Notes: generated by a model from the letters alone, not told the origin. A stretch of DNA of 64,000 bases from an uncultured Candidatus Saccharibacteria bacterium (GCA_964399865.1 CAYNRJ010000001.1:67727-131726); one strand, 5' to 3'; counted from the stretch's first letter, positions 1 to 63,654 are shown. Program-made: numbers and translations.

Positions 1-118
1 GGTCGCTCAGGGCGTCACCTCTTTCGGGTCCCTGTCTGCGCCTGCTGGCGCAGCGCTCGGTGTCGGCACCGTCGTGCCTGCGAAGACCCTCAAGAGATGA
101 CGCCCTTCGCTTAGGGTT
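1..118 (+). repeat. GC-rich structured repeat element, copy 1 (candidate ncRNA / structured mobile element)
   Basis: Shares conserved core TCGGGTC..CTGTCTGCGCC-TGCT-GGCGCAG-CGCTC..TCGGCAC-CGTC-GTGCC-TGCGA-AGACCCTCA with copies at 4497-4616 and 10512-10633. Outer arms AGGGCGTCACCTCTT (9-23) and AAGAGATGACGCCCT (92-106) are complementary with one mismatch. Lies in the 3' flank of trxB; may be truncated at the window edge. Confidence 0.6.
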
Positions 119-141
119 AAGAAAATATGCTCGATTACGCT

Positions 142-1065
142 CTACGCAAGACGTAATGCCATGTAGATATCCTCAAGCGCTTTTACTGCGTCGCCCGCGG
201 CGATGTTGTTCTGGTGGTAGGTGCCGTCAGTCACGTCTCCAGCAGCCCACACACGTGGGTGCGAGGTTCTTTGAGTACGAGGATCTACTTTAATTTGTTT
301 TATTGGACTCATCTCGAGCGCATTACCGAGCCACTCAGTATTTGGCAAAAGTCCTATCTCTACGAAAACGCCTTCTACGGGGAGCGTCTCTTCTTTCCCG
401 GTTTTTGTGTCCACCCAAGTAAAACCGTTCACAAATTTTTCTCCTACGACTGCTTTAGGCTGTGCGTTCATTACGAATCGCATATTTGGATGTTTTCTGG
501 CAGCCTCGACACTGATTTCGTCGGCTTTAAATGTTTCTGTGCGATTGAAAAGAGTTACGGTCTTGCAATATGCAAGAAGCTGCAGCGCAGTCTCGAGTCC
601 TGCGTTCCCACCTCCGATCACTGCAACGTCCTTGCCTTCAAAGAGAGGGCCATCGCAGGATGCGCAGTAGGTGAGGCCTTTTTGGTCGTATTCTTTGGCT
701 CCGGGCACCTCCAACATTCTTCTGCGAGCGCCGGATGCAATGAGGACAGCGCGTGCCTCAATTGAAGTACCATCTTTCAGCCCCACCGTTACGGAATCAT
801 TCTTTGGTTCAAGGCTTACGGCGCGAGCGGGATGCTTAATATCGAGGAAAGGCCCCTTGTAGCCTTCCACGTGCTTTTTGAGGCTGTCCGCGAGGTCGGC
901 ACCAGAAATCGCAGGAGTGCCTATCCAGTTTTGGACTTCGGAAGAAACACCGCTCTGACCACCCCACTCGTCTACGACAAGCGCTGTTTTTAATTGCTTA
1001 CGAGCTGCATATACAGCGGCAGCGGACCCAGCAGGTCCACCTCCGATAATTATAAGATCGTACAT
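142..1065 (-). CDS. trxB: thioredoxin-disulfide reductase
   Basis: N-terminal GGGPAG FAD motif, redox-active CASCDG, second GGGNAG NADPH motif; 307 aa typical of TrxB. Confidence 0.9.
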   Translation of the reverse strand: MYDLIIIGGGPAGSAAAVYAARKQLKTALVVDEWGGQSGVSSEVQNWIGTPAISGADLADSLKKHVEGYKGPFLDIKHPARAVSLEPKNDSVTVGLKDGTSIEARAVLIASGARRRMLEVPGAKEYDQKGLTYCASCDGPLFEGKDVAVIGGGNAGLETALQLLAYCKTVTLFNRTETFKADEISVEAARKHPNMRFVMNAQPKAVVGEKFVNGFTWVDTKTGKEETLPVEGVFVEIGLLPNTEWLGNALEMSPIKQIKVDPRTQRTSHPRVWAAGDVTDGTYHQNNIAAGDAVKALEDIYMALRLA

Positions 1066-1123
1066 AGAAGAAATAGGGACTAGTCGTCTATTTTACTACA
1101 TCCTCTAGGAGGATGACCAGTGT

Positions 1124-2356
1124 TTATCTTCGGCGGAGGAACGATGGAAGCCCGCCCCACGTGTCGTCGTCATCTTCCTTAGGTTTTGGTGTTTCCGCTG
1201 GCTTAATTGTCTCCTTGATGATCATTGGCTTCTCGTTTCTCTCTACCGGAGTAGGAGGGGTCGGGATATCGTCGTTTCGCTTGAACTCAGTTCGTCCTAC
1301 GCGTATTGAAGCAGGTGGAACATCCTGATCTTTTTTAGCCGCTATGCGCTGTGAAGTAGCAAAGACTGTCGTAGGGCGTACTGGAGAGCCACCGCTCGAT
1401 TCTGGAAAGCCTGTAGCGATGACCGTAACGCGCACGTAACCTTTCTTGAGAGAGTGATCGACAACAGTACCGAAGATGACCTTTGCATCTGGGTCGATAG
1501 ACTCGGTGATGACATTTGCTGCTTCCTGTATCTCGAGCATGCCGAGGTCCTCGCCGCCTGCAATAGAGAAGAGAATGCCTTTTGCGCCATGTACAGAGAC
1601 ATCGAGGAGAGGGGAATTTATAGCAGCACGAGCTGCAATCTCTGCTCGCTTCTCGCCGGAGGCTGTTCCGATACCCATGAGAGCAGACCCGGCGTTCTGC
1701 ATGACAGCGCGCACATCGGCGAAGTCTACGTTGATGATGCCTGTTTGAGTGATGAGGTCCGAGATACCTTCGACGGCCTGTTTCAGTATGTCATCGCACA
1801 TTGCGAACGCATTCTTTATTCCAGTATCACGCGAGACGATGGCGAGAAGTTTGTCGTTTGGAATAACGATTAGGGCGTCAACAGCTTTGCGAAGTTCTGC
1901 GAGACCCTGTTCTGCGAGTCTACCGCGTTGAGCGCCCTCAAATCCGAATGGCTTAGTGACGACACCTACAGTGAGAGCGCCGAGTTCGCGAGCAATTTTT
2001 GCAACAACTGGAGCCGCACCTGTGCCCGTGCCTCCTCCCATACCGCAGGTGATGAACACCATGTCCGAGCCTTTGATCGCTTCCTGCACTTCTTCTCTTG
2101 TCTCATCGGCCGCTTGCTTACCGAGGTCGGCATTCATGCCAGTACCTAAGCCACGAGTAAGAGCTTTTCCTATATGAATCTTTCTTTTAGCCTTAGATTT
2201 GTGAAGATCTTGGCCATCCGTGTTAACAGCAATGAAGTCCACACCTTCTACGTGCGAACTTACCATGTGGTTGACAGCGTTGCCACCAGATCCGCCTACG
2301 CCTATCACTCGAATTCGAGCGAATGACTCAACATCAGATTTCACTTGTTTAGTCAT
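1124..2356 (-). CDS. ftsZ: cell division GTPase FtsZ
   Basis: Tubulin signature GGGTGTG and the conserved FtsZ core, followed by a long Pro/Asp-rich C-terminal linker. Confidence 0.92.
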   Translation of the reverse strand: MTKQVKSDVESFARIRVIGVGGSGGNAVNHMVSSHVEGVDFIAVNTDGQDLHKSKAKRKIHIGKALTRGLGTGMNADLGKQAADETREEVQEAIKGSDMVFITCGMGGGTGTGAAPVVAKIARELGALTVGVVTKPFGFEGAQRGRLAEQGLAELRKAVDALIVIPNDKLLAIVSRDTGIKNAFAMCDDILKQAVEGISDLITQTGIINVDFADVRAVMQNAGSALMGIGTASGEKRAEIAARAAINSPLLDVSVHGAKGILFSIAGGEDLGMLEIQEAANVITESIDPDAKVIFGTVVDHSLKKGYVRVTVIATGFPESSGGSPVRPTTVFATSQRIAAKKDQDVPPASIRVGRTEFKRNDDIPTPPTPVERNEKPMIIKETIKPAETPKPKEDDDDTWGGLPSFLRRR

Positions 2357-2478
2357 GTTCCCGACATCATATCACTTTCAAGGCGAGGTCAAACTTGACC
2401 CCCTATAGCATGCATGTTTCAGTTTTCTTCGAGAAATCAGACGAAAACTGCACTTAGATTCGAACGGGTATGTATTCC

Positions 2479-3651
2479 TTATGGAAGAAGTGAACGAATC
2501 GCACGACGAACTGCTTCTCCTGCGCGTCTCAGTACTTCGCTAAATGAATATCTGCTATCAGTGTTGTCCTCCATATATGCCCAGCGGCAAAGTCCGTAGG
2601 CAGTGGACCACGTGGCATCTACACCCGAGGATCTTGGCAGATATCCTATCTGAGCAACTTGAGCCGGCAATTTAAGAGTCATGCGCGCTACATCAACAAC
2701 CGGAGGAAGTCCGCTACCTCCTCCAGTGAGAACAATTCCCGCTGGAAGAAGTCCTTGTCTGCCCATTGTTTTTAAATACACATTTACCTGCGTGAATATT
2801 TGTTTCAGTTTTGTTGCGATCACCGTATTCATTCTCTGAGGAGTGATTGTGCTACCTGTCACAGCACCTCGCTTCATTTGCTCAGCTTCAGTAAGAGGGA
2901 TGCGGAAAGCGAGCGCGATCGCGTTCGTGATCTCGCTTGAGCCGGTTGGAAATACTTTGATCGCAACAGGGAGGTCGTTATCAAAAATTATCGTCGAAAG
3001 GGTGTCCGCACCGATGTTTGCGAGGATAACGCCAGCAGTTTTCTGAGCCTTGGAAAGAGTCACGAAACTGGCAGCAAGTGGGGCAGCCATGACACCCTCT
3101 ACTTCTACGCCCGCCGCCTCAACCGTATCGATGATGTCGTCATGGTGCTTCGCGAGTACTGTAATGAAAAGGACCTCTACCGACAGTTTCGTTCCCTGTA
3201 GACCATTTGGCCTGCCAAAAACCTTTTGCCCGTCGACCCGGTACTCTATTGGGATGCTGTGAATAATGAATCGATTCAATAGTTTAGGACCACCGCGTTT
3301 TTCGCTTTCGCTGATAGCACGCTCTACATCGCGGTCGGTGACGACACCACCTGATTGCGTTAATGTAACCTCTCCTACGGAACGAATGTCTTCAAGACTC
3401 ATGCCTCCGAGCGCTACTCGAGCGCTTCGCACCGGCACTTTAGTAGAAGATCGAGCGCGTGCGAGAGCTTCCTGCAGACTTCGTGCCGCTTCCTTAATGT
3501 CTACTATGTATCCTTGGCGGATACCTTTCGAAACAGCTGTCCCTGTTCCGAGTACATGCATCGGGAGTTCTGGATTTTCTGCCGGTGTCGCAATAACCAC
3601 TTTAACGTGAGAAGAGCCGATATCGACACCGGTATACACGCTACGAGCCAT
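2479..3651 (-). CDS. ftsA: cell division protein FtsA (actin-like ATPase)
   Basis: N-terminal VDIGSSHVKVVIA phosphate-1 motif and LTGGGS adenosine motif; sits immediately upstream of ftsZ in the classic ftsA-ftsZ order. Confidence 0.85.
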   Translation of the reverse strand: MARSVYTGVDIGSSHVKVVIATPAENPELPMHVLGTGTAVSKGIRQGYIVDIKEAARSLQEALARARSSTKVPVRSARVALGGMSLEDIRSVGEVTLTQSGGVVTDRDVERAISESEKRGGPKLLNRFIIHSIPIEYRVDGQKVFGRPNGLQGTKLSVEVLFITVLAKHHDDIIDTVEAAGVEVEGVMAAPLAASFVTLSKAQKTAGVILANIGADTLSTIIFDNDLPVAIKVFPTGSSEITNAIALAFRIPLTEAEQMKRGAVTGSTITPQRMNTVIATKLKQIFTQVNVYLKTMGRQGLLPAGIVLTGGGSGLPPVVDVARMTLKLPAQVAQIGYLPRSSGVDATWSTAYGLCRWAYMEDNTDSRYSFSEVLRRAGEAVRRAIRSLLP

Positions 3652-3734
3652 CTAGCTATTGTAACGCTATTATGTGCAGCCGTAAAAACCTTATATAAGG
3701 GGATATTTAAGAAAAACCAAAAGCCGCGCGGAGA

Positions 3735-4124
3735 TTACTTAAAGCCGAATTTTCTCAGGACTTTCACCTCGAGTGCATCCATTTTTTCTCCGTGGTCATA
3801 GCCGAGCAGGTGAAAGCATCCATGCACAAATAGATGGGCGGTTCGATCGATCGTCTTCATGCCGAATGTCTTTGCCTCACGCTCCGCTTTACGAATGTTC
3901 AGAAAGATTTCCCCCTCAATTTTTCCGATAGGGAAGGAAAGCACGTTTGGAGCGTATGTCTTCTTTCGATATTCGCGGTTCATACGACGCGAAAGATTGT
4001 CGCCGCATACAACTATGGAGAGGGAATAGGTCTTCGGTAAGATTGCCTTAGCAATTTTCTCAAATGGAATACGCGGAGTGTTGCTCCGCGTTGTGTTCCG
4101 TATATCTACGCTACCCGTAGGCAT
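3735..4124 (-). CDS. ybeY: rRNA maturation endoribonuclease YbeY
   Basis: H-x3-H-x5-H metal-binding motif (HLFVHGCFHLLGYDH); ~129 aa. Confidence 0.8.
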   Translation of the reverse strand: MPTGSVDIRNTTRSNTPRIPFEKIAKAILPKTYSLSIVVCGDNLSRRMNREYRKKTYAPNVLSFPIGKIEGEIFLNIRKAEREAKTFGMKTIDRTAHLFVHGCFHLLGYDHGEKMDALEVKVLRKFGFK

Positions 4125-4450
4125 TAGTGGGCGATAGGAGCTCCTTCAGGAGCGGTAGGAGTAGCAGACTGCGTTGGAGCGTCTGACTGACCTTGGCGAG
4201 AGTATGGGGAACGGCGAGCTGGGGCTTCAATTACCTTGCCTTCTTTTACAAGTTGGCGGTATTCAGCACGGCGCTTCAAGAGTTTGAGAGCGTGCTTTTT
4301 CTTAACTGTTTTCGATGCACTTCGAGCGTAATAGCGCTGTTTTCGGACAGTTTTTACAAGGCCTGTGCCCTGCACCTTCCTGCTGAATTTGCGAATAGTC
4401 GCAAGGGCGGTTTCGCTGCCTGTTTTCGATACCTCTACGTTTATGGACAT
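4124..4450 (-). CDS. rpsU: 30S ribosomal protein S21-like
   Basis: Basic small protein with an S21-like core (RKFSRKV...KKKHALKLLKRRAEY) and a C-terminal extension. Start placed at the internal ATG (MSINVEV). Overlaps the ybeY start by 1 nt. Confidence 0.5.
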   Translation of the reverse strand: MSINVEVSKTGSETALATIRKFSRKVQGTGLVKTVRKQRYYARSASKTVKKKHALKLLKRRAEYRQLVKEGKVIEAPARRSPYSRQGQSDAPTQSATPTAPEGAPIAH

Positions 4451-4496
4451 GAGAGGGAACTTTAGCATATAAGCCAAAAAACGCAAAGAAGACCCA

Positions 4497-4616
4497 CCAC
4501 TAGGAAGTGAGGGGATTACGTGCTTCGAGGGTGTCTCGCAGGCTGACGAGCCGAGAGGCAGCGCTCCGCCAGCAGGCGGAGACAGCGACCCGAGAAGTAC
4601 GTAATCCCTGAACGCC
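4497..4616 (-). repeat. GC-rich structured repeat element, copy 3 (candidate ncRNA)
   Basis: Reverse complement aligns to copies 1 and 2. Outer arms GGGATTACGTACTTC / GAAGCACGTAATCCC; inner hairpins CUCCGCC-UGCU-GGCGGAG and GGCU-CGUC-AGCC. Begins 5 nt after the stop of the surface-protein gene. Its 3' hairpin plus a U-run forms a terminator before rpsU. Confidence 0.6.
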
Positions 4617-4621
4617 GACCC

Positions 4622-6739
4622 CTACACCTCCTGGAACGTCGGCACAATCCTCACCTTCGACGTCCTCGTCACCGTATCTCCATCAAGCCCAAGACAGGAA
4701 AGAGTGTAGATGGTCTCTTCCTGTATCAGATCAGTACGATTTCCAGAGGCGCCACTCCACGAGCTGCCATTTGTCCTCGTCACGGAGCACGAGCTGACAT
4801 TTCGCACCTCCCAGGTCACAGAGACCGAGCTGCCACGCTGCACTAGAAGAGGACTCACAGTCCAAGTCACCACCTCAGCAGGAGGAGGAGGGGTACATAT
4901 ACCAAGGTTGCACTGATAGCTGCAGGTTGTCACGACTTCTCCGTCGCAGCTGTTCACGACATCTGCTCCTGAACACTCATTGAAACAATTCTGTTCGCAT
5001 ACACCATTTCGTAGGATTTGTCCTGCAGGACACGTAGTGATTGTGGTCTCAGGACACTCAAACGTTCCGGTCCAAGTGACGCGGACTTCTCCACGAGCAC
5101 CATTGCCACCATCTCGCCATCCATTGCCCCCTGCGCCCCCACTTCCAACAGTGACAGGTACTGAGGCTCCAACGGTGAGCGCACCCACAGCATATGTCTT
5201 GGTTGCTCGCCCTCCGCCACCACCGCCACCACCTTCTTGATCAAACCAGACCCATGCACCACTTCCACCTCCTCCAGGAGCACTGCCTGCGTTCCCTGGA
5301 GCTCCTCGAGATGCTGCGGCAACTCCGCCAGCGCCGCCTCCAGTTGGAGCACCTGCACCACCTGTTCCACCTGCGAAGTTTTGCCCAGAGCCTGCGATAC
5401 CATTTCCTCCATTTGCACCTGAGTCACCGCCAGAATACGTTCCCCCTTGAGAAGGAGAGGTGCCGTATATACCAGCACCTCCTCCACGACCGATCAACGT
5501 TGTATTGAAAGAAGAATCACCACCCCTCGTGCCGTTACTGTGTCCGATTCCATCTCCCGCACCTCCACCACCTGCGCCATATACGTCGACACTGAGAGTT
5601 GTGTACGTTGGTACGGTGAACGAAGAAGAGCTGGTGAATACTCGAGTGTTGGATGCTGTATATGATTCACCTGGATCAACTCCTGCAGGGCAGTACCCTG
5701 GAGGGCACTGACTCGCGCTCGCCTGTACTCCTGTGATGTTGGGGCACATGTCAGGGCCACCTCCTCCGCCCCCACCTCCTCCTCCTCCTGGGCACTGAGA
5801 TGCTGAGGTTTGTACTCCTGACATGTTTGGACATGCGTCCTGCACACACTGGCCATTCTGCAGAACGTATCCAGAAGGAACACTGGATTGGTTGCCATTA
5901 ATGTTTGGACAAACGTCAGGTCCACCAGTTGAACACTGTGACGTACTAGTCTGCACTCCTGGCATGTTTGGGCACTTGTCTTCGCATTGATCTGCGAGGT
6001 TGTCCCAATAGTCGGCCTGGCTGTCGTTGCCGATGGATGCGTAGTAGTTGGCGGCGGTGCGGTATTCGGAGCAGGTGGATGGGTCGTCTTTTGGTCCCGG
6101 ATCATTATCACCCGTGTCGGTATCACACTCATTTGGATACACATCGTAATGCGGCTGACCATTTTTTCCTGTGGAGTATACGGAATAGGTGCCACACGGC
6201 GCACTCACGTATGAGAAATCATGGTACGTGTAAGTAGGATCAGAGTCGGCAGTTTTTCCGTCGCCAATCGGAAATGAGTTGACTGTCTCATAATTGTCAT
6301 ACTGCGTAAGATATGTACAATCGTCCCCCACACTTGAGGCCGAGTTTTGCGTCACTACACAATCTTCACCTTCAAAGGCTCCAGAATAATCACCGCCACT
6401 TAGTCCTCCGCCGCTGCTAGAGCAATATTGATCATAGCCGGCATTACACATATCGTCTTCCGAAAAGCAGTAACCACCTTGCTCTATTGGCCGATTCGAA
6501 GGGCAATCCGCATCCTCGCAATAACTTTGATATCCTGCATTGCATAGATCTTCAGGCGGCCAATAACTTGGGTCATGGCAGGCTCCATTTATATCTGCGA
6601 TTTGGTTACCAGAACAAGATCCCGCAGCTTGCAGCTGATATGGAAGGAGAGTGGCAAGGAGGAGCGCAATGAAAGTGAGGAGTATTGTAAGCACTGATGC
6701 GCTCGAGCTTTGAAAATGGGTCAAGGAAGACATATGCAT
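4622..6739 (-). CDS. large secreted/cell-surface protein: signal peptide, Cys-rich N-domain, tandem CPNxxGxQxSxSQC repeats, Gly-rich fibre-like domain, C-terminal Ig-like domain
   Basis: N-terminal hydrophobic signal (LTILLTFIALLLATLL). About four tandem Cys-bounded repeats. Long GGxGG-rich segment resembling phage-fibre/adhesin glycine-rich domains. Clean 705-aa ORF. Confidence 0.65.
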   Translation of the reverse strand: MHMSSLTHFQSSSASVLTILLTFIALLLATLLPYQLQAAGSCSGNQIADINGACHDPSYWPPEDLCNAGYQSYCEDADCPSNRPIEQGGYCFSEDDMCNAGYDQYCSSSGGGLSGGDYSGAFEGEDCVVTQNSASSVGDDCTYLTQYDNYETVNSFPIGDGKTADSDPTYTYHDFSYVSAPCGTYSVYSTGKNGQPHYDVYPNECDTDTGDNDPGPKDDPSTCSEYRTAANYYASIGNDSQADYWDNLADQCEDKCPNMPGVQTSTSQCSTGGPDVCPNINGNQSSVPSGYVLQNGQCVQDACPNMSGVQTSASQCPGGGGGGGGGGGPDMCPNITGVQASASQCPPGYCPAGVDPGESYTASNTRVFTSSSSFTVPTYTTLSVDVYGAGGGGAGDGIGHSNGTRGGDSSFNTTLIGRGGGAGIYGTSPSQGGTYSGGDSGANGGNGIAGSGQNFAGGTGGAGAPTGGGAGGVAAASRGAPGNAGSAPGGGGSGAWVWFDQEGGGGGGGGRATKTYAVGALTVGASVPVTVGSGGAGGNGWRDGGNGARGEVRVTWTGTFECPETTITTCPAGQILRNGVCEQNCFNECSGADVVNSCDGEVVTTCSYQCNLGICTPPPPAEVVTWTVSPLLVQRGSSVSVTWEVRNVSSCSVTRTNGSSWSGASGNRTDLIQEETIYTLSCLGLDGDTVTRTSKVRIVPTFQEV
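5759..5791 (-). repeat. (GGN)11 microsatellite encoding an 11-residue poly-Gly tract inside the surface-protein gene
   Basis: CCTCCTCCGCCCCCACCTCCTCCTCCTCCT on the + strand corresponds to GGGGGGGGGGG in the protein; in-frame length variation is possible. Confidence 0.7.
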
Positions 6740-6978
6740 TATTGAGTAGGAGGGGCGGAAGGTTGCACTGGGAAGGGTGGCATTAAGAGATCAGAAGATC
6801 TGATATTACTTTCCTCCGCCGCGGGAGTATTTGAGTATGCAAAATAGCCAGTCAAAACCGTGAGGAGAATAAATATTAAGATCAAAAAAAGAAGAGCCTT
6901 CAGTAACGTCAGATGATGAACATTCTTCTGCTGCTCTTGCGGTTGAATAGGGGAAGCGAATTGCGACTGTGGAGGCAT
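6739..6978 (-). CDS. small single-pass membrane protein, translationally coupled to the surface-protein gene
   Basis: 78 aa with one TM helix (LLKALLFLILIFILLTVLTGYFAY). Its TAA stop overlaps the ATG of the downstream gene (TAATG). Confidence 0.5.
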   Translation of the reverse strand: MPPQSQFASPIQPQEQQKNVHHLTLLKALLFLILIFILLTVLTGYFAYSNTPAAEESNIRSSDLLMPPFPVQPSAPPTQ

Positions 6979-7040
6979 TCAAAAAGTGTACGATATAAAA
7001 GCAAGAAAATCCGCGAGGAAATAGTGAATTGGGGAAAACT

Positions 7041-7082
7041 AAAAAGCAAAGAGGGTCGCCCGGACGTGGGGCGACCCTCTTG
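7041..7082 (-). terminator. intrinsic terminator of the GC-rich secreted-protein gene
   Basis: Perfect 12-bp stem AGAGGGTCGCCC / GGGCGACCCTCT with a 7-nt loop, followed on the - strand by UGCUUUUUAGUUUU. Confidence 0.7.
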
Positions 7083-7109
7083 ATGAAGGCATTCACGCGG
7101 TGTGAACGC

Positions 7110-7559
7110 CTACATGAGGCCGAGCGCGATCAGCGTTGCGGCGGTCGCCGGTTCGGCATCGTCGTACGGCCCGCAACGGCCGGCCACGACGAAGCGTGCA
7201 CCGCCCTCGTTGTAGGACGAAGAGCCGCAGGCTTCGATCTGGGCATCAGGCCCCCATTGCACGATTGCAGAAGGACCGAAGCCGGTGCCCTGACGCAGCC
7301 ATACGGACACGCCGTTGTTGGGGTTGACGTACGCCGACCAGGTGACGCCACGGTCGTCCGTGACCTCGGCCGTGAAGTACTTCGAGCTCTGGGCGATATC
7401 CGCGAGGATGTCGCCGAACGGCGGCGGAGACGGCGCCATGACGACCACGAACGCCGTCGCTGCCGGCTTCGTATCGTCGACAGAGGCAGCAAGCGCATTC
7501 GGGATGGCCGCGGCAAGCATAAGAGCGGCCGAAGCCGCGATTGCGATACGCTTCATCAT
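7110..7559 (-). CDS. small secreted protein (signal peptide), carried on a GC-rich island
   Basis: Start at MMKRIAIAASAALMLAAAIPNALA preceded by AAAGGAGGG. Region 7029-7700 is visibly much GC-richer than its flanks. Has its own strong terminator. No recognisable domain. Confidence 0.55.
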   Translation of the reverse strand: MMKRIAIAASAALMLAAAIPNALAASVDDTKPAATAFVVVMAPSPPPFGDILADIAQSSKYFTAEVTDDRGVTWSAYVNPNNGVSVWLRQGTGFGPSAIVQWGPDAQIEACGSSSYNEGGARFVVAGRCGPYDDAEPATAATLIALGLM

Positions 7560-7728
7560 CTGATTTGGCCCTCCTTTCAGGCCATGTAAAGTGAAGATCA
7601 GTAGAACCCTGCTCGCCAGAGTGGCGTAGCTAGGTGGTCGCATTCTACCACTCCTTACGGCTCCGTCAAGAGCCGTATGGGCCTCGGAGAGGAGTCAATG
7701 TACCTATTTAGCATGATGACTACTGATG

Positions 7729-7748
7729 CGAAAAAGGCAATAAGCCTT
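7729..7748 (-). terminator. candidate hisS terminator
   Basis: AAGGC-UUAUU-GCCUU hairpin followed by UUUUCGC on the - strand, 16 nt after the hisS stop. Confidence 0.4.
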
Positions 7749-7763
7749 ATGGGATAACTTATT

Positions 7764-8993
7764 TTATCCAGCCACAGCGCTCTTCCACACTCCCATCCGA
7801 TGTCTTTTAAGGTAATTCGTTAATTCAGGAACCGGAACTGCCTCTTGAGAGTTTGTTGCGACCTCACGAACTAGTATCGTGCCCTCAACAGCCTCCTTAT
7901 GTCCCATAATCAGAATGTACGGAGTTGCGTGATGTCTTGCTGCAGCCATCTGTTCGCCAATTCTTTCATGAAGAAGTCCTTGGTGGACCGGAATACTGTC
8001 CTTTCGTAAGGTCTCAAGAATCGAAAGTGATCTACGACGTGCTTCTGCCCCTAGGTGAGCGAAATAAATCGCTGGCAATCCGGCGTTGTCTCTTTTTTGT
8101 CTTGTTGGAACACGTCCGCGGAGTTCACACGTGATACTGATCATCGCAGACGGCATTGATCGACGTGCAAATCTTGCTGCAAGAGGATCGTAGCGGCCTC
8201 CGAAGGCGAGCGAGATGCGTCCTCCTGTTTCTTGATCGAGTGTTGATATCTCAAATAGGGAATGTGACCAGCAATCACGACTTCCAAGTACCTGTGGAGA
8301 GAGTTCGTACGGCAACCCGAACACTTCTAGGTACTCAAGTAGCTCCCAGAATCGTCTTCGCTCTTCTTCTGTAAGATATTCCATCGCCTGAGGCGCGCGC
8401 GGGACAGCAGGGTGTCCTCGTTCGATGAGTTGGACGAGCGCGCCTAGTGGATCTGTAGCTGCGCGAGGGCGAAGTGTCGGCGTAATTGACTCAATATGTT
8501 TTCGTAGATAGGCAGAAACGTCTCGCACGAAGCGATTTGATGACTCCATCGATCCAATGTTGTTCACGGAGAGTACTCGCTTGGAAATTCCCGCTTCCTG
8601 CGCGATTGCATCAGCTACAACTATGAGAAGCGCCTCGGCAATTGCAGAAGAATTTCCCACAACATGCAATTCAAGACCTACACTCGGTATTCCATCGCGC
8701 TCTTTTGCAGAATTTTCGCTCATTCGCCATACAAGCACCGGTTTTTCCGGGGTTTGTGCGCAAGAAATACACTTTCGAGCGGAAACAGCGAGTGGTCGCT
8801 CCTCGCGGCGTGCGAACATGATTTCCGATGGATCGCGCTTCGACTGAACTGGCTTTGGTTCGCCGCTTCTTGCTTGGCGAGAAGTTTTCATTGACTCTTC
8901 GAGCGATGAAAATCCGTAATATTCTGCGATACGGATAGCCGATGAAAGAAATCCGGCGGTATTTTGATGCTGAGTATCTTTTAGACGGATCAT
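7764..8993 (-). CDS. hisS: class IIa aminoacyl-tRNA synthetase, histidyl-tRNA synthetase-like
   Basis: GGRYD motif-3 region and C-terminal class II anticodon-binding domain (ILIMGHKE...). N-terminal motif 1/2 region is divergent. Confidence 0.6.
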   Translation of the reverse strand: MIRLKDTQHQNTAGFLSSAIRIAEYYGFSSLEESMKTSRQARSGEPKPVQSKRDPSEIMFARREERPLAVSARKCISCAQTPEKPVLVWRMSENSAKERDGIPSVGLELHVVGNSSAIAEALLIVVADAIAQEAGISKRVLSVNNIGSMESSNRFVRDVSAYLRKHIESITPTLRPRAATDPLGALVQLIERGHPAVPRAPQAMEYLTEEERRRFWELLEYLEVFGLPYELSPQVLGSRDCWSHSLFEISTLDQETGGRISLAFGGRYDPLAARFARRSMPSAMISITCELRGRVPTRQKRDNAGLPAIYFAHLGAEARRRSLSILETLRKDSIPVHQGLLHERIGEQMAAARHHATPYILIMGHKEAVEGTILVREVATNSQEAVPVPELTNYLKRHRMGVWKSAVAG

Positions 8994-9071
8994 GAAAGGT
9001 TTTTAGTAGTAAGTTTGTAGTATTCACCCACGTGACAAACGACTATTGTCTTATCGACTACCTGCTAATAA

Positions 9072-9692
9072 CTACTCTTCAAATTTCGCTTCTCCGGGAA
9101 GTACACCAATGCGATCAAAAGGGAATAAACGAAGGAATGCGCGGCCAACAATGTTCTCTCGAGGGAGTGGTCCCCAAATGCGGGAGTCAGAAGATACGTG
9201 ACGATTGTCTCCCATCACGAAATATTCGTCTGCACCAAGCGTAATTTGCATATCATTTCTGCCGCCAAGGTTTGTCGGGTCAAGATACGGCTCATCGAGT
9301 AGGAATCCATCGGGATTTGCGGCGTTTTCTATAGTAATTCCCTCAGGAGTGATGATTACTTTCTCATTTGGGAGGCCAATGACGCGCTTTATGAGTGATT
9401 TACTCGGTGTTCCTGGCAATCCAAACACAATAACGTCTCCTCTTGAGGGGTTTTCAAGCGTGTAGGTGATGCGATCGACGACGAGGTAGTTACCGTCGTG
9501 GAATGTTGGGTCCATAGATGCTCCGTCGACGAGATATGGCGCTGCAACGAAGAATCGAATGATGAGTGCGAAGCCAAGTGCGAGGATAAAATAGAAAAAG
9601 AGGGAGCGAGAAGACGTTTTTGGAGTCGGCGCAGGAGAAATTGTATCCAGTGATAAATCTTTTTCGATCACAGGAACATTCATGCGCGGCAT
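9072..9692 (-). CDS. lepB: signal peptidase I
   Basis: N-terminal TM anchor; boxes B (GASMDPTF) and E (GDNRHVSSDSRIWG) of SPase I. Confidence 0.85.
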   Translation of the reverse strand: MPRMNVPVIEKDLSLDTISPAPTPKTSSRSLFFYFILALGFALIIRFFVAAPYLVDGASMDPTFHDGNYLVVDRITYTLENPSRGDVIVFGLPGTPSKSLIKRVIGLPNEKVIITPEGITIENAANPDGFLLDEPYLDPTNLGGRNDMQITLGADEYFVMGDNRHVSSDSRIWGPLPRENIVGRAFLRLFPFDRIGVLPGEAKFEE

Positions 9693-9920
9693 TGTACTAC
9701 TTTTATGGCGTTGACACCAAGTTGTTGTAGTGTTGCTCCGCTCGAAGCGCTATATATTTTTCGTACACGAATATTTTTCTGCTGAAAAATTCCTCGAGTT
9801 CGCGCCGTCGCGCTCACTGGGTACTCAAAACATATAGCGCTCCTCACTACGCGTGTTTTTTTTCGTGTCGTACCTTAAGAGTACCTGGCTTTTCTCGTTT
9901 TTCTGCTAGAATGCCGCCAT

Positions 9921-10511
9921 ATGACATGGGTAATCGTTGGCCTAGGCAATCCAGGAGAGAAATACGAGGCATCTAGGCATAATGCTGGCCGTATCGCAGT
10001 ACAATTTTTTGCAAAAGTTTCTAAGTTGAAGGATTGGACTGAGCACAAGACGTCAAATTCGCTTACAGCGGCTGGAATGGTGGGGAAAGTGGCTGTTGCG
10101 GCGATTTTGCCCAACACATTTATGAATAAATCCGGTTCTGCAGTGGTGAAGTTCGTAAAATCTGCAAAGGCGGCTGAACATTTGGTCGTTGTTTACGATG
10201 ATCTCGATCTTCCGCTTGGAAAATTTAAGATTTCCTTCGATCGAGGGAGCGGTGGTCATAAAGGACTCGAATCAATCATGCGTGCCGTGAAGACAAAGAA
10301 GTTTGTGCGGGTACGAATTGGTGTTTCTCCGGAGACCGCGGGAGGTTCTCTTAGAAAACCTGATGGCGAGAAGGCTGTTCTCGATTTTATTTTGACGAAA
10401 TTCAAGCCTAGTGAGGTGGATACGCTCAAAAAAGTATTCAAACAAGTAGCAGAAGTATTAAGCGTGATCGTGCTGGAAGGAAGAGAAATTGCGATGAATA
10501 GGTTTAATTGA
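9921..10511 (+). CDS. pth: peptidyl-tRNA hydrolase
   Basis: VGLGNPGEKYEASRHNAG N-terminal signature; 196 aa. An extended -10 (TGCTAGAAT) sits 6 nt upstream of the ATG, suggesting a leaderless mRNA. Confidence 0.9.
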   Translation: MTWVIVGLGNPGEKYEASRHNAGRIAVQFFAKVSKLKDWTEHKTSNSLTAAGMVGKVAVAAILPNTFMNKSGSAVVKFVKSAKAAEHLVVVYDDLDLPLGKFKISFDRGSGGHKGLESIMRAVKTKKFVRVRIGVSPETAGGSLRKPDGEKAVLDFILTKFKPSEVDTLKKVFKQVAEVLSVIVLEGREIAMNRFN

Positions 10512-10633
10512 GGTCGTTCGCGGGTGTTGTGTTGTTCGGGTCGCTGTCTGCCGCTGCTGCGGCAGCGCTCACTCTCGGCCCGACGGCCTGCGAGAGACCC
10601 TCACAACACAACACCCTCTCACTAAGGAGAGGG
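10512..10633 (+). repeat. GC-rich structured repeat element, copy 2 (candidate ncRNA)
   Basis: Starts immediately after the pth stop. Perfect 14-bp outer stem GGGTGTTGTGTTGT / ACAACACAACACCC. Inner hairpins CTGCCGC-TGCT-GCGGCAG and GGCC-CGAC-GGCC. 3' hairpin CCCTCTC-ACTAAG-GAGAGGG. Confidence 0.65.
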
Positions 10634-10661
10634 TGTGTGGAGGAGTGTGAAGAAACGGAGG

Positions 10662-11783
10662 TTAGTTCACCGGCTTCAATGTCATTCGACGATCTTTTGG
10701 CTCGAAGAATGTAATTGTGAACGGATATACTTTGCCGAGCTCGAGTTTTGCACGGAGTTCCTGTTCGTTTGCAAACTCTGACACGTGTACAAGACCTGCG
10801 ACACCTTCTTCTATTGATGCGAGAGCACCATGCTTGTTGTACTTGATGATGACAGCGTCCACTTTCTGGTCTTTCTTGTATTTTCCAGCAGCTGTTGTCC
10901 ATGGGTCCTCAACAAGAGCTTTGATCGATAGAGATACTTTGCCATCTTTAATTTCGATGACCTTAACCTTTATCTTTTCGCCGGTCTTGTAGCGAGTCTT
11001 AGGATTTTCAACGAGTGCCCAGTCCATTTCAGAGATGTGTACCAAGCCTTCTAGACCTTCTTCAATCTTCACGAAGATGCCGAACTCAGTTGCGCCTGTC
11101 ACAACGCCATCGAGGGCGTCGCCAACATGGTATTTCTCAACGAGAGATGCGCGCTCGGAAGGAGCAGCACCCTTTTCAGAGAATATGAGCTTATTTTCTT
11201 TAGGGCTTGCGGTGATAACCATGACTTCGATCTTTGTGCCGACGAGTTTCTTGAGTTCACCGAAGATCTTTTCCTTGTCCCCATCCGGTACGCGTGGGTA
11301 ATGGGCAGCTGCGAGTTGAGAAGCTGGCAAAAAGCCCTGGAGTCCGTTCCAACTGATGATAAGACCGCCCTTGTTTGCTTCCGTAATAGGGAGTTCGAAG
11401 ACTGTCTTCTTTTGCATAGCGACTTCAGCCTCGTTCCAGATGAGTGCCTGACGAGCTTCGCGGAGCGAGAGCTCAATGTATCCGTCCTCATTATCGGAGC
11501 CTACGACTTTCGCCGTAATGGTGTCGCCAATGTTGACGTTCTTAAGTGCTTCACGAGCCGATAGGTATTCGCGGCCGTAAATAATGCCTGTACCGTATGG
11601 ATTGAGATCGACGAAAACCCGAGCACGCCCAACGGCGATGACCGGACCTTCTACGACATCATCTATAACAGGCGGTTTGCCGCTTGTGCGGAGAATTTCC
11701 GCCATTGGCCCCGTCTTTTCTGCTACCACCTCAGTATCGTTATCATCACTAACAACTACCTTCTTAGCCTCTTTTTCTACCAT
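10662..11783 (-). CDS. rpsA: 30S ribosomal protein S1-like (four S1 RNA-binding domains)
   Basis: Repeated S1-domain motifs (G.V.G.V..I...G.FV); 373 aa, short form. Confidence 0.8.
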   Translation of the reverse strand: MVEKEAKKVVVSDDNDTEVVAEKTGPMAEILRTSGKPPVIDDVVEGPVIAVGRARVFVDLNPYGTGIIYGREYLSAREALKNVNIGDTITAKVVGSDNEDGYIELSLREARQALIWNEAEVAMQKKTVFELPITEANKGGLIISWNGLQGFLPASQLAAAHYPRVPDGDKEKIFGELKKLVGTKIEVMVITASPKENKLIFSEKGAAPSERASLVEKYHVGDALDGVVTGATEFGIFVKIEEGLEGLVHISEMDWALVENPKTRYKTGEKIKVKVIEIKDGKVSLSIKALVEDPWTTAAGKYKKDQKVDAVIIKYNKHGALASIEEGVAGLVHVSEFANEQELRAKLELGKVYPFTITFFEPKDRRMTLKPVN

Positions 11784-32591: not shown

Positions 32592-32663
32592 GGGCCAGTA
32601 GTTCAGTGGTAGAACGTCTCATTTGCAATGAGAAAGTCGGGGGTTCGATTCCTCTCTGGTCCA
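32592..32663 (+). tRNA. tRNA-Ala (anticodon UGC)
   Basis: Cloverleaf: acceptor GGGCCAG/CTGGTCC with the G3:U70 Ala identity pair. D-arm GTTC-AGTGGTA-GAAC. Anticodon stem TCTCA/TGAGA with loop TTTGCAA. T-loop GGTTCGATT. No encoded CCA. Confidence 0.7.
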
Positions 32664-32672
32664 CACATTTAT

Positions 32673-62508: not shown

Positions 62509-63654
62509 ATGTTAGGTATGGGAACCAGCAGCCCTCACGGGAAGATTTTTGCCGTTGCAGATATAGGAAGCGGTAGCGCGAGTGTCGCTATTTGCGCTGC
62601 GAGCCACGGCAGACCGGCTCGCATAATTTCCGCCCAATCGACAGTTCTCCCGATCGGCGATCGAAAAGGGGACGCGACGATGACTGGAGTTATTGCAGCG
62701 CTTTCTGAAAGTGCCAATAAAGCATTGACCGCCGCACAAGCTACGAAAATTGGTCACATTCAAAACGTATACGCAATCATTCGCGCACCATGGACCACCT
62801 CAAAGGCAATACGTGCAACTAAAAAATTCCCTACAGACGAAAAAATTAACGATGCTGTCATAAATGCCCTTGCTAAGGAAGCCCTCGGAGCAGAAAAGGA
62901 CCTCGATATCTCAAAACTTCTCGAGGCAAGCGTTGTGAGAGTCGAATTGAACGGTTATCCGACCGCAAATCCAATAGGTAAGCACGCCCACGCGGTTGTC
63001 GTTGCCGCTATCGCGAGCGAATGCGATCCGAGAATGAAAATGGCCGTTGAGGATACACTTTCAAAGGTATTCTCATCAAAACCAGCACTTCGCTCAGGAA
63101 CTCGAACACTTCTCACCGTACTTCGAGAGCGCTCGTCAGCGTATGCGGACTACCTTATTGTCGATATGACAAGTGAGGCGACGAGCATCATCTCAGTCCA
63201 TAAAGGAACCCCGATGGGACATGTGGTAGTAGCGGAGGGAACTCGAACGATCCTTAAAAGAGTGGCGGGTAAGGGGCTGCCAGAAGAAACTCTGACCCTT
63301 ATTCGAATGCTCGCGCAGGATCACTGTGAAGATTCAGCGTGCGAAGCGGTAAAAGAGGGGATGGCACGTGCAGAACAAGATCTTATAAAGACTTTCGGAG
63401 AAGCGATGGCAAAATTAGTCACCGTCCGCCGACTTCCGAGAAATCTCGTTCTGTCAGCCGAGCTTCCTATGGCGGAATGGCTCTCCCACTTCTTTTCTCG
63501 AATAGATTTCACCCAATTCACGATTACAGCCCAGCCTTTCAGTGTCGAAATCTTAAGCGCTGAAGACCTTTCAACCCTCGTTGCTACGCAGAGTAAGACG
63601 CCAGACATCGGACTTATGAGCGCTGTAGCGCTTGTCAACAGCGATCTTCGGTAA
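62509..63654 (+). CDS. ASKHA-superfamily (actin / Ppx-GppA-like) protein, function unknown
   Basis: N-terminal phosphate-1 motif IFAVADIGSGSASVAI; second motif region degenerate (LIVDMTSEATSII). Confidence 0.4.
   Translation: MLGMGTSSPHGKIFAVADIGSGSASVAICAASHGRPARIISAQSTVLPIGDRKGDATMTGVIAALSESANKALTAAQATKIGHIQNVYAIIRAPWTTSKAIRATKKFPTDEKINDAVINALAKEALGAEKDLDISKLLEASVVRVELNGYPTANPIGKHAHAVVVAAIASECDPRMKMAVEDTLSKVFSSKPALRSGTRTLLTVLRERSSAYADYLIVDMTSEATSIISVHKGTPMGHVVVAEGTRTILKRVAGKGLPEETLTLIRMLAQDHCEDSACEAVKEGMARAEQDLIKTFGEAMAKLVTVRRLPRNLVLSAELPMAEWLSHFFSRIDFTQFTITAQPFSVEILSAEDLSTLVATQSKTPDIGLMSAVALVNSDLR

Follow-up and report, generated by a model that had tools for sequence, protein, structure and literature searches.

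A dispersed, GC-rich palindromic repeat with a conserved three-way junction, located after stop codons and in-frame within genes of Patescibacteria

The structured elements in the 64,000-nt window (the whole stretch of DNA analysed here) belong to a large family of GC-rich palindromic repeats native to ultra-small CPR bacteria of the Paceibacteria type (Nomurabacteria, Kaiserbacteria and their relatives). We consider it probable, at roughly 60%, that this is a non-autonomous family of the REP/REPIN/RPE-like type, the fold of which is recognised as single-stranded DNA by a structure-specific trans-acting protein that mobilises or maintains the copies. The elements are copies of a widespread repeat found after stop codons or in-frame in essential genes, and therefore do not represent a stand-alone RNA gene. 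No description of the family was found in the searchable literature.

Written on the strand used in the preliminary description, a unit consists of a short leader, a 13-30-nt arm, a core of ~62 nt comprising helix P2, hairpin H1 (loop TGCT) and hairpin H2 (loop CGTC), a complementary arm and, in many cases, a short tail containing a small hairpin. That description had placed three such elements in the window, and all three were found where it put them with the core, arms and hairpins it gave, including the complementarity of the arms, the covariation of H1 and H2, the GGGTC/GACCC helix, the short 3' hairpins sharing the CCC and a GC content of 0.63-0.66 against 0.489 for the window. The neighbouring genes are also as named (TrxB-like, Pth and S1 by Pfam, rpsU by eye). 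The count of three was too low: a search of the window with our covariance model returned four copies, the fourth being a diverged one that had been missed.

Copy 1 (1-116, minus strand; match at 1-115, 70.5 bits) is located 24 nt downstream of the stop of a TrxB-like gene (142-1065, minus strand). Read on the plus strand, its leader GGTCGCTCA occupies 1-9, the 5' arm 9-23, P2 26-30/85-89, H1 36-53 (loop TGCT), H2 65-78 (loop CGTC), the 3' arm 92-106 and the small 3' hairpin 103-116; because position 1 of the window falls within the leader, this copy may be truncated at the edge of the window or contig. Copy 2 (4493-4620, plus strand; match at 4503-4617, 109 bits) follows at once upon the TAG stop (4624-4622) of a 705-aa ORF, with an rpsU-like ORF downstream, and its better-folding plus strand is antisense to both. 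In the minus orientation its leader GGTCGGCGTTCA spans 4620-4609, the 5' arm 4608-4594, the first strand of P2 4591-4587, the 3' arm 4526-4512 and the small hairpin about 4514-4493. Copy 3 (minus strand; match at 10512-10626, 107 bits) fills the space between the pth stop (TGA, 10509-10511) and the rpsA/S1 stop (10662-10664), such that the inserted block (10512-10661) is ~150 nt of leader, palindrome and tail, and not ~120 nt. On the plus strand its leader lies at 10512-10521, the arms at 10522-10535 and 10603-10616, P2 at 10538-10542/10596-10600, H1 at 10548-10565, H2 at 10577-10588 and the small hairpin at 10614-10633, with the tail running up to 10661. The diverged copy 4 (9737-9850, minus strand; 47.7 bits, E 8e-13, GC 0.47), in the divergent lepB/pth spacer, keeps the architecture with altered sequence (P2 GUAC/GUAC, H2 GCGC-GACG-GCGC, H1 AUUUUUC-AGCA-GAAAAAU and 15-bp arms); its orthologue is present in the related genome L125, degenerate in L123 and absent from L126, L124 and L122. 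The spacing of the copies is irregular, with four in 10.6 kb and then none in 53 kb of the window.

A long, variable stem closes a three-way junction that is conserved and has two invariant tetraloops, and the proposal that this fold is conserved with abundant compensatory change holds on 96 sequences. Over 36 pairs in these sequences, 93.3% of cells are paired, compared with 72.1% in shuffled and 37-48% in slid alignments, and 729 cells carry double changes against 220 after shuffling; none of 500 shuffles reached the observed values. Pair 34:62 is GC in 49 sequences and CG in 46, P2 covaries (GGCGT/ACGCC in L125 and L126, and the pairing noted above in copy 4), and diverged subfamilies retain arms and junction together with the GACG and AGCA loops. 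G-U pairs occur in 0 of 480 cells of H1. Such perfect Watson-Crick covariation could arise partly from palindrome-specific repair or template switching and not from selection on RNA. The elements stand as described, but the choice of strand required revision: the reverse complement folds better (minus for copies 1 and 3, plus for copy 2), with a lower MFE in 91 of the 96 copies and z-scores of -5.5 to -7.6, and the C-A mismatches in the arms as first written turn into G-U pairs when it is used. Arm mismatches comprise 202 A.C against 81 G.T, and the bias is equal in intergenic copies and in both in-frame classes (S0 and A2, below). This strand bias could be a legacy of master copies and not a sign of selection acting now.

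As had been supposed, the similarity does not stem from a recent duplication confined to the window. An exact-core scan of genome contigs detected the core at at least 118 loci in at least 74 assemblies, all of them Patescibacteria among the matches listed, in a sample that favours intact copies because it was picked by an exact 20-base match; 123 copies are listed among these loci, and viral contigs gave no matches. No Rfam family matches the elements: the sole match at the gathering thresholds of Rfam 15 was a tRNA-Ala elsewhere, and with E values up to 10 the elements gave just chance matches of the miRNA type.

Between 57 and 61 of the 123 listed copies lie in-frame within long housekeeping ORFs, in either orientation. 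By eye, none of the six frames of the core contains a stop, and two of these are used, 28 in-ORF copies being in S0 and 33 in A2, with 12 or fewer in the other four frames, where the spans are mostly short and likely spurious. One frame reads GSLSxxAxxALPLGSSACETP and the other, on the opposite strand, GVSQADGPRGSAxRAxGDSDP; the two are related through inversion of the whole element. Judged from the open frames, the insert peptides are ~25-35 aa long and situated in permissive loops of housekeeping proteins, and the insert is probably read through as peptide (for example, GVSQADGPRGSAPR or GSLSPRARGALPLGSSACETPR). At least 15 distinct insertion sites in at least 13 protein families were found, in hosts that include PcrA, Tgt, TsaD, RecG, UvrB, Def, IleS, MnmA, Fmt, RluD and RsmA, and Pfam domains extend across the inserts. 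The unusual point is that the core is near-invariant at all codon positions despite saturated host synonymous sites: 4-fold sites of the hosts are 0.35-0.42 identical, whereas in non-stem core columns unconstrained by the search pattern conservation is 95-99% at each of the three codon positions, in either frame class. Intergenic copies mostly lie 5-70 nt from stop codons, 9 of them between convergent genes, with no orientation preference relative to the neighbouring genes, and most copies have no T-run on their 3' side.

Copies have spread, inverted, decayed and been lost. At least 9 core matches were counted in the MFVF01 genome, and a CTGTCCGGGGAAAATTC-type arm is common to at least 6 of these; in such bursts the arms travel together with the core. 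Copies at different sites within a genome share variable stems more than copies between genomes (permutation p about 0.0035); variable stems are, however, often site-specific (e.g. CGGCT in RecG in three genomes), so wholesale gene conversion cannot explain everything. The window, L125 and L126 have a filled pth/rpsA spacer, while that of L123 and L124 is an empty 1 nt; the first PcrA site is occupied in 3-5 of 15 sequences, and the second was lost in L078 via an 87-nt in-frame deletion. Contig ends coincide with copies. The same codon position carries both orientations, mostly consistent within clades, and the arm bulge changes side at constant length, which is evidence of inversion; on rare occasions the whole element flips by way of its own inverted arms, which converts one frame into the other. 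Once inserted, copies are passed on vertically. Most relatives keep the Def insert intact, and about 12 of 40 have a degraded one; the MFE of decayed copies is -14 to -18 kcal/mol against -80 for an intact one, and the 54 kb around three decayed loci contain no intact copies. Lineages differ, with the core almost invariant where the family is "alive" and elsewhere decayed or deleted in-frame. At copy boundaries we found no clear target-site duplication: 27 direct repeats 4 nt or longer flank the copies, where about 10 would be expected, but all are one recurring motif partly within the insert, and the CGCTCG and TCTCGCT flanks partly belong to the inserted block. The family behaves as a dispersed, at least formerly mobile repeat, and the contrast drawn earlier between selection on a fold and a transposon copy was a false dichotomy.

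These genomes are compact and retain copies in two places only, right after stop codons or in-frame in permissive protein loops. In the mechanism that we favour, the fold would matter in single-stranded nucleic acid and on one particular strand, that opposite to the strand first described, and ssDNA is most likely the relevant form because the strand bias is independent of host transcription. A structure-specific trans-acting protein, for which a Y1 HUH (RAYT-like) transposase is the leading candidate, would recognise the invariant loops and the junction and mobilise and/or maintain the copies, while palindrome-specific repair would help the stems to stay perfectly paired. Y1_Tnp genes (Pfam, 37-39 bits) flanked by REP hairpins are present in L057 (the burst genome), L017 and L129. 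The palindromes flanking these RAYT-like genes differ from the present element, two such genes among 0.94 Mb of DNA sampled would be expected if each genome carried one, and the window contains no Y1_Tnp gene. The near-invariance of old orthologous copies is not predicted by a purely selfish element.

This conservation at all codon positions would fit if each copy is a host-exapted cis-acting element, kept by purifying selection as part of the DNA or the mRNA, an explanation that we hold to be unlikely. Possible jobs are a site for a chromosomal, topological or repair protein or, behind stop codons, a 3'-end stabiliser or a bidirectional terminator, and copies would then lie in genes because intergenic DNA is nearly absent in these genomes. 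The per-site inheritance of variable stems and arms (RecG, TsaD), the proximity of intergenic copies to stops and their occurrence between convergent genes are consistent with such a role, as are the invariant loops, which imply specific recognition, and the independence of orientation, which suits recognition of duplex or cruciform DNA. Several lineages, however, decay or delete copies while the host gene stays intact, the spacing in the window is irregular, and identical-arm bursts resemble selfish spread. A terminator within essential ORFs would be harmful and the T-run is missing from most copies; the strand asymmetry is not expected of a duplex site.

The preliminary description had offered a novel ncRNA or an attC-like element; the conserved fold stands, but neither a discrete ncRNA gene family nor an attC-like site is supported. 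We consider it improbable that the family consists of small structured non-coding RNA genes, each giving a discrete ~120-nt RNA with a junction that acts in trans or binds a protein. The strong covariation, the invariant loops, the concentration of G-U pairs on one strand and the z-scores of that G-U-rich strand would all fit, but half of the copies lie in ORFs in both orientations with respect to the mRNA, and intergenic ones are sense or antisense to their neighbours without preference. No promoter-like sites were seen adjoining the window copies, the lack of G-U in H1 is unusual for a selected RNA, Rfam gave no match, arms differ from locus to locus, and copies are gained and lost.

Still less credible is an intervening sequence, removed at the RNA level as a mini-intron or bypassed by the ribosome, with the long arms joining the flanks. 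Inserts do interrupt conserved domains of essential enzymes, very stable structures would bring both ends together, and yeast mitochondria are known to have GC-rich palindromic inserts that are bypassed. A removed element, however, needs neither an open frame nor a particular phase, and ~57 copies are stop-free and frame-keeping, in two of six frames only; decayed copies are still open and in-frame, and the family is common outside genes too. On the same ground, that every in-ORF copy is open and in phase and that just two of six frames occur, we did not assign the repeat to the self-splicing introns or bypass elements. A recombination site of the attC type, or another structure-specific one belonging to an integron-like system, would share the conserved structure, variable stem sequence and one better-folding strand, but can be set aside almost entirely, as here the hairpin tip and not the base is conserved, RYYYAAC/GTTRRRY boxes were not seen by eye at the ends of the three window copies first described, and copies occupy housekeeping ORFs and the spaces between core genes, with no cassette array around them.

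Among known systems, integron attC sites likewise conserve stem structure over sequence and have one active strand; the present element has no R/L (R''/R') boxes by eye, core-gene neighbours in place of a cassette context or array, and a conserved tip, and was not assigned to them. Bacterial MITEs (Correia/NEMIS, ERIC, RUP, Nezha) are similarly small, non-autonomous and dispersed, with long hairpins, occasional in-frame fusions and assemblies broken at copies. They have conserved terminal inverted repeats, a variable interior, target-site duplication and a parent IS, whereas here the termini (the locus-variable arms) vary, the interior core is conserved, no clear target-site duplication was found and no parent IS was seen; a MITE was rejected on this basis.

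The closest known kinds are REP/REPIN repeats and Rickettsia palindromic elements (RPEs); RPEs, and intragenic REPs in uvr/rec genes, are already known (PMC10969869, PMC3733652). REP/REPIN/BIME sequences are hairpin repeats found for the most part downstream of genes, in the spacers of tandem or convergent ORFs, with some in uvr/rec and other genes and some forming dimers within longer palindromes, and a single-copy enzyme recognises them as single-stranded DNA in a strand-specific manner (PMC3733652). Related CPR genomes likewise contain RAYT-like genes with flanking REPs, the sequences of which differ from this element. A REP unit measures 20-40 nt and carries a GTAG or CGTC tag at its terminus, whereas the present element is 95-150 nt and branched, with two unlike hairpins; CGTC is here the H2 loop only, and GTAG occurs only where the host TAG stop abuts copy 2. 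RPEs are palindromic repeats, ~100-150 bp long, that occur in many copies in a reduced genome; roughly half are in-frame in unrelated housekeeping ORFs, where they encode a conserved peptide, the rest are intergenic, and no dedicated transposase is known for them (PMC10969869, PMC3733652). The present family differs in that its branched three-way-junction tip is conserved while the arms vary, both orientations are accommodated via two inversion-related frames, and the cores are near-invariant across hosts with saturated synonymous sites. Its CPR host also belongs to a different phylum, and since the host phyla are unrelated we claim RPE membership by kind, not by family.

The three elements of the preliminary description, copies 1-3 at window positions 1-116, 4493-4620 and 10512-10661, were borne out on re-reading, with the core, arms and hairpins it gave. 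On the strand first written (S strand), each runs from a leader through a variable arm into a core of helix P2, hairpin H1 (loop TGCT) and hairpin H2 (loop CGTC), and out through the complementary arm to a tail. Shuffle z-scores range from -2.5 to -4.3 on the S strand and from -5.5 to -7.6 on its reverse complement (A strand), which folds better because C-A mismatches in the S-strand arms turn into G-U; DNA parameters give a common three-way junction for the two strands, the A strand being 2-4 kcal/mol more stable. The GC enrichment also held (0.63-0.66 in the three copies, against a window mean of 0.489), as did the gene neighborhood: Pfam confirms TrxB-like, Pth and S1, and likewise FtsZ, FtsA, YbeY and LepB nearby. 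R1, a covariance model built from the copies of the core scan described below, detected a diverged fourth copy at 9737-9850 (47.7 bits), with new sequence and the architecture kept; a weak match at 63352-63470 (15 bits) was rejected, its fold being unlike the family. The window starts inside an element copy. Upstream of copy 2 is a 705-aa ORF (4622-6739, minus strand; no Pfam domain at E 1e-5), and downstream, in the same frame, a 120-aa ORF (4124-4486, minus strand) that, from its sequence, probably includes a shorter rpsU-like gene with its start near 4452 (MSINVEVSK...), for which Pfam gave no confirmation. A 13-bp hairpin at 7049-7081 (minus strand; AAGAGGGTCGCCC-CACGTCC-GGGCGACCCTCTT, then TGCTTTTTAG) scores only 9-10 bits with R1; it looks like a terminator, yet has GGGTCGC...GCGACCC and AAGAG/CTCTT in common with P2 and the inner arms, and may be a collapsed derivative of the element. 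The sole RNA gene found in the window by Rfam or ARAGORN is a tRNA-Ala (TGC) at 32592-32664 (plus strand).

When one genome per species was scanned for an exact match to 20 core bases, at least 118 loci from 74 assemblies were recovered, and among the matches listed every one was from Patescibacteria, the taxa being Nomurabacteria, Kaiserbacteria, Paceibacterota and Minisyncoccia. TPA bins named 'Saccharibacteria' among these matches encode proteins 70-90% identical to their Nomurabacteria counterparts, and the nearest proteins to the window Pth are from Kaiserbacteria and Paceibacterota; an identical-protein look-up for Pth returned the same species only, with no polymorphism. The exact core had no match in viral contigs, and our literature search found no description of this element family in CPR bacteria. 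The conserved fold with compensatory changes, first proposed from three copies, is upheld across 96 distinct copies: at 36 pairs, 93.3% of cells are paired, versus 72.1% after column shuffling and 37-48% with slid partners, 729 double-change cells were observed versus 220 in shuffled columns, and none of 500 shuffles reached any observed measure. In the same 96 copies, double changes per pair number 24-53 at each of the five variable pairs of H1 and 17-39 in H2, and one junction pair is split between G-C (49 sequences) and C-G (46). R1 also detects AT-richer subfamilies at other loci, in which the long arms, the junction and the loops GACG and AGCA (A strand) are kept.

Several variants of this architecture were seen among the Patescibacteria loci compared (L-numbers). 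Some of L020, L053, L105, L052 and L069 have an extra GC-rich hairpin beside H2 (CCCCGCC...GGCGGG, forming a four-way junction) and some a longer H2, while truncated copies in L033 and L068 retain the H1 half alone. At L110:3709-3945 two copies of different subfamilies lie inverted, 6 nt apart, resembling a REP dimer. Nested or very long palindromes occur in L034 (~480-700) and L017/L032, where a further inverted repeat of ~23-45 nt carries the element at its tip and TCTCGCTC follows each layer.

The preliminary description had offered the element as a candidate novel ncRNA or attC-like structure. Rfam returned no relevant match at gathering thresholds or at E up to 10, in keeping with the proposed novelty, and a hammerhead-like CUGANGA in H2 was judged a coincidence because it is confined to one H2 variant and has no Rfam match. 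The ncRNA/attC reading is upheld only in part: the conserved, covarying fold stands; the discrete ncRNA gene does not, as among the matches listed 61 of 123 instances lie in frame within long ORFs, with a stop-free span of 0.6-3.7 kb through the element in two of the six frames only. The family is thus not an ncRNA gene, and its copies can be mistaken for ncRNA signals, since they covary no less strongly than genuine RNAs. Frame S0 is used by 28 copies (peptide GSLSxxAxxALPLGSSACETP) and frame A2 by 33 (GVSQADGPRGSAxRAxGDSDP), examples of insert peptides read from the open frames being GVSQADGPRGSAPR and ALPLGSSACETPR. The core is stop-free in all six frames. S0 is open in 29/29 A2-class copies and A2 in 27/28 S0-class copies (other frames, 30-75%); near-palindromic arms around an open core keep both frames open, which accounts for the use of these two alone.

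Among the matches listed, the in-ORF copies occupy at least 15 sites in at least 13 host families: PcrA/UvrD, Tgt, TsaD, RecG, UvrB, Def, an IleS-like synthetase, MnmA, Fmt, RluD, RsmA and two surface proteins. The inserts are spanned by host Pfam domains; AlphaFold2 on an insert-bearing Def gave an unusable model (mean pLDDT 39), so their putative placement in surface loops derives from alignment gaps. Two concatenated insert peptides used as a protein query gave three candidates, none significant, the word index limiting such short queries; HMMER with a 33-aa window peptide against 1.84 billion proteins gave two matches at E up to 1e-3, and a 21-aa match is underpowered and silent on prevalence. 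The pcrA genes of L085, L079 and L056 carry a second in-frame palindromic insert (AATCCCGTTAGAGGC-CGCGAGGGCTCGCAGCGACCCTCT-GCCTCTAACGGGAT), near ...DSLMIN..NPVRGREGSQR..SNG..., whose centre (GGGCTCGCAG|CGACCC) resembles the studied core minus both H2 and H1; L030 and L112 have additional long in-frame palindromes adjoining PcrA site 2. Between genes, copies mostly fall at a distance of 5-70 nt from a stop codon. Nine have convergent neighbours, 13 tandem ones (with the A strand as sense strand in 5 and as antisense in 8) and two divergent ones. At L042:1445-2818, asd is flanked by two copies between hom and a proC-like gene, as punctuation of tandem genes; what lies between paired copies is asd or genes for hypothetical secreted proteins, and none encodes a transposase.

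Either orientation of the element can be found at one and the same codon of a gene. On host trees orientation is mostly clade-consistent, with at least five switches overall. S0 and A2 alleles at the TsaD site are equal in length and a single-base arm bulge changes side; the entire element, with its inner arms, was therefore flipped to its reverse complement in situ. An orientation set by replication polarity was rejected, window copies 1-4 being -, +, -, - within 10.6 kb.

In orthologous in-ORF copies, host 4-fold sites are 0.35-0.42 identical (saturation) and cores are 84-91% identical. Conservation of non-stem columns in the core half outside the search pattern is 95-99% at each of the three codon positions, which places the constraint on nucleotides, not on the peptide. 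This nucleotide-level constraint is lineage-dependent: most of 40 Def homologues have an intact peptide and about 12 are decayed or shortened and K/E/N-rich, their DNA having lost GC and structure (MFE -14 to -18 kcal/mol, versus -80 in an intact copy). No intact copy was found in 54 kb around three decayed Def loci. Variable stems are identical in 7.7% of comparisons between copies at different sites of one genome versus 0.6% for copies in different genomes (p ~0.0035), which indicates some core exchange; the stems are nevertheless often site-specific.

Copies are also gained and lost. The pth-rpsA spacer, site of copy 3, is 1 nt in L123 and L124; in the window, L125 and L126 it measures ~150 nt, with an inserted block of leader, palindrome and a 40-nt tail. 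Flanking repeats were enriched in a check for target-site duplications, but they are one motif (CGCTCG/TCTCGCT), at least partly element sequence because the block includes leader and tail. The site of copy 4 is filled, degenerate or empty among relatives, one PcrA site has the element in 3-5 of 15 genomes, and another was lost in L078, where an 87-nt in-frame deletion spared part of an arm. One genome, MFVF01 (which includes L057), holds a burst of at least nine core matches, at least six with a common arm (CTGTCCGGGGAAAATTC...), and therefore arms move together with the core in the burst; possible TA, CTA or TAG duplications flank two of four burst copies. That arms are inverted copies of host flanks, considered for L030, is no general rule, as burst copies share arms and L078 is a deletion scar. 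A contig of the window's species (L119, SRR14271372_7665) begins at copy 2 (~4560), and others end in copies (L035, L013, L109, L067, L057, L045); because assemblies break at the element, copy numbers in MAGs are probably underestimated.

With regard to where the element acts, mismatches in the arms number 202 of the A.C type on the S strand (read as G.U on the A strand) and 81 of the G.T type, and the A strand is the more stable in 91 of 96 copies. The mismatch ratio is equal in S0, A2 and intergenic copies; a role in mRNA is unlikely because the bias ignores host transcription, and single-stranded DNA, or inheritance from master copies, fits it better. Among 480 H1 cells none is G-U, which may point to requirements on both strands or to template-directed repair of the palindromes. 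Y1_Tnp (IS200/RAYT-like) genes, all above the Pfam cut-off, occur at L057:1946-2754, L017:2886-3664 and L129:1-1290, flanked by short palindromic REPs (CCCCGTCAAGGAG-G-CTCCTTGACGGGG; CCCGACAGTC-A-GACTGTCGGG; and, in L129, the GTAG-tagged TCGTGAGGC-AAG-GCCTCACGA) that differ from the studied element; one lies in frame within the L057 transposase gene. The RAYT-like genes themselves span 1999-2748 in L057 (MFVF01) and 2931-3497 in L017 (JAHFMV). Two RAYT-like genes in the sampled DNA are the chance expectation if each genome had one, and such an enzyme is a lead, not a finding. Our literature search found no report of REP-RAYT systems in CPR bacteria.

We give a chance of roughly one in five to the reading that the element is host-maintained, invertible, dual-coding structured DNA specific to Paceibacteria, not merely selfish, with a trans-acting protein and nucleotide-level selection. 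The three-way junction, on one DNA strand, would be the recognition site of a conserved protein, perhaps a domesticated HUH/RAYT-type enzyme; purifying selection on nucleotides would keep copies, including those in essential genes, over times in which host synonymous sites saturate; and a flip would swap the encoded peptide and leave the enzyme unharmed. If true, a replicator and its host would have formed a lasting partnership recorded in protein-coding sequence. Near-invariant third codon positions, inversion in situ and lineage-limited decay make a clean system for asking whether REP-like elements are maintained by selection for host function or as a persistent replicator with its enzyme. 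Streamlined genomes repeatedly take in structured repeats inside essential proteins, and for annotation the inserts make host proteins (PcrA, Tgt, TsaD, Def and others) longer and more variable in length, and assemblies break at the repeats; R1 could be used for masking or tracking them in CPR metagenomes.

The closest known kinds are the Rickettsia palindromic elements and REP/REPIN repeats, whose lifestyle the family shares; precedents include REPs within uvr/rec genes and REP dimers that form part of long palindromes (PMC10969869, PMC3733652). In-frame 'coding palindromes' have hitherto come mainly from Rickettsia, and the CPR family is a second, independent and far larger case. It differs from both kinds in its branched, conserved tip and variable arms, in its use of two frames related by inversion, in deep conservation at the nucleotide level, and in its host phylum.
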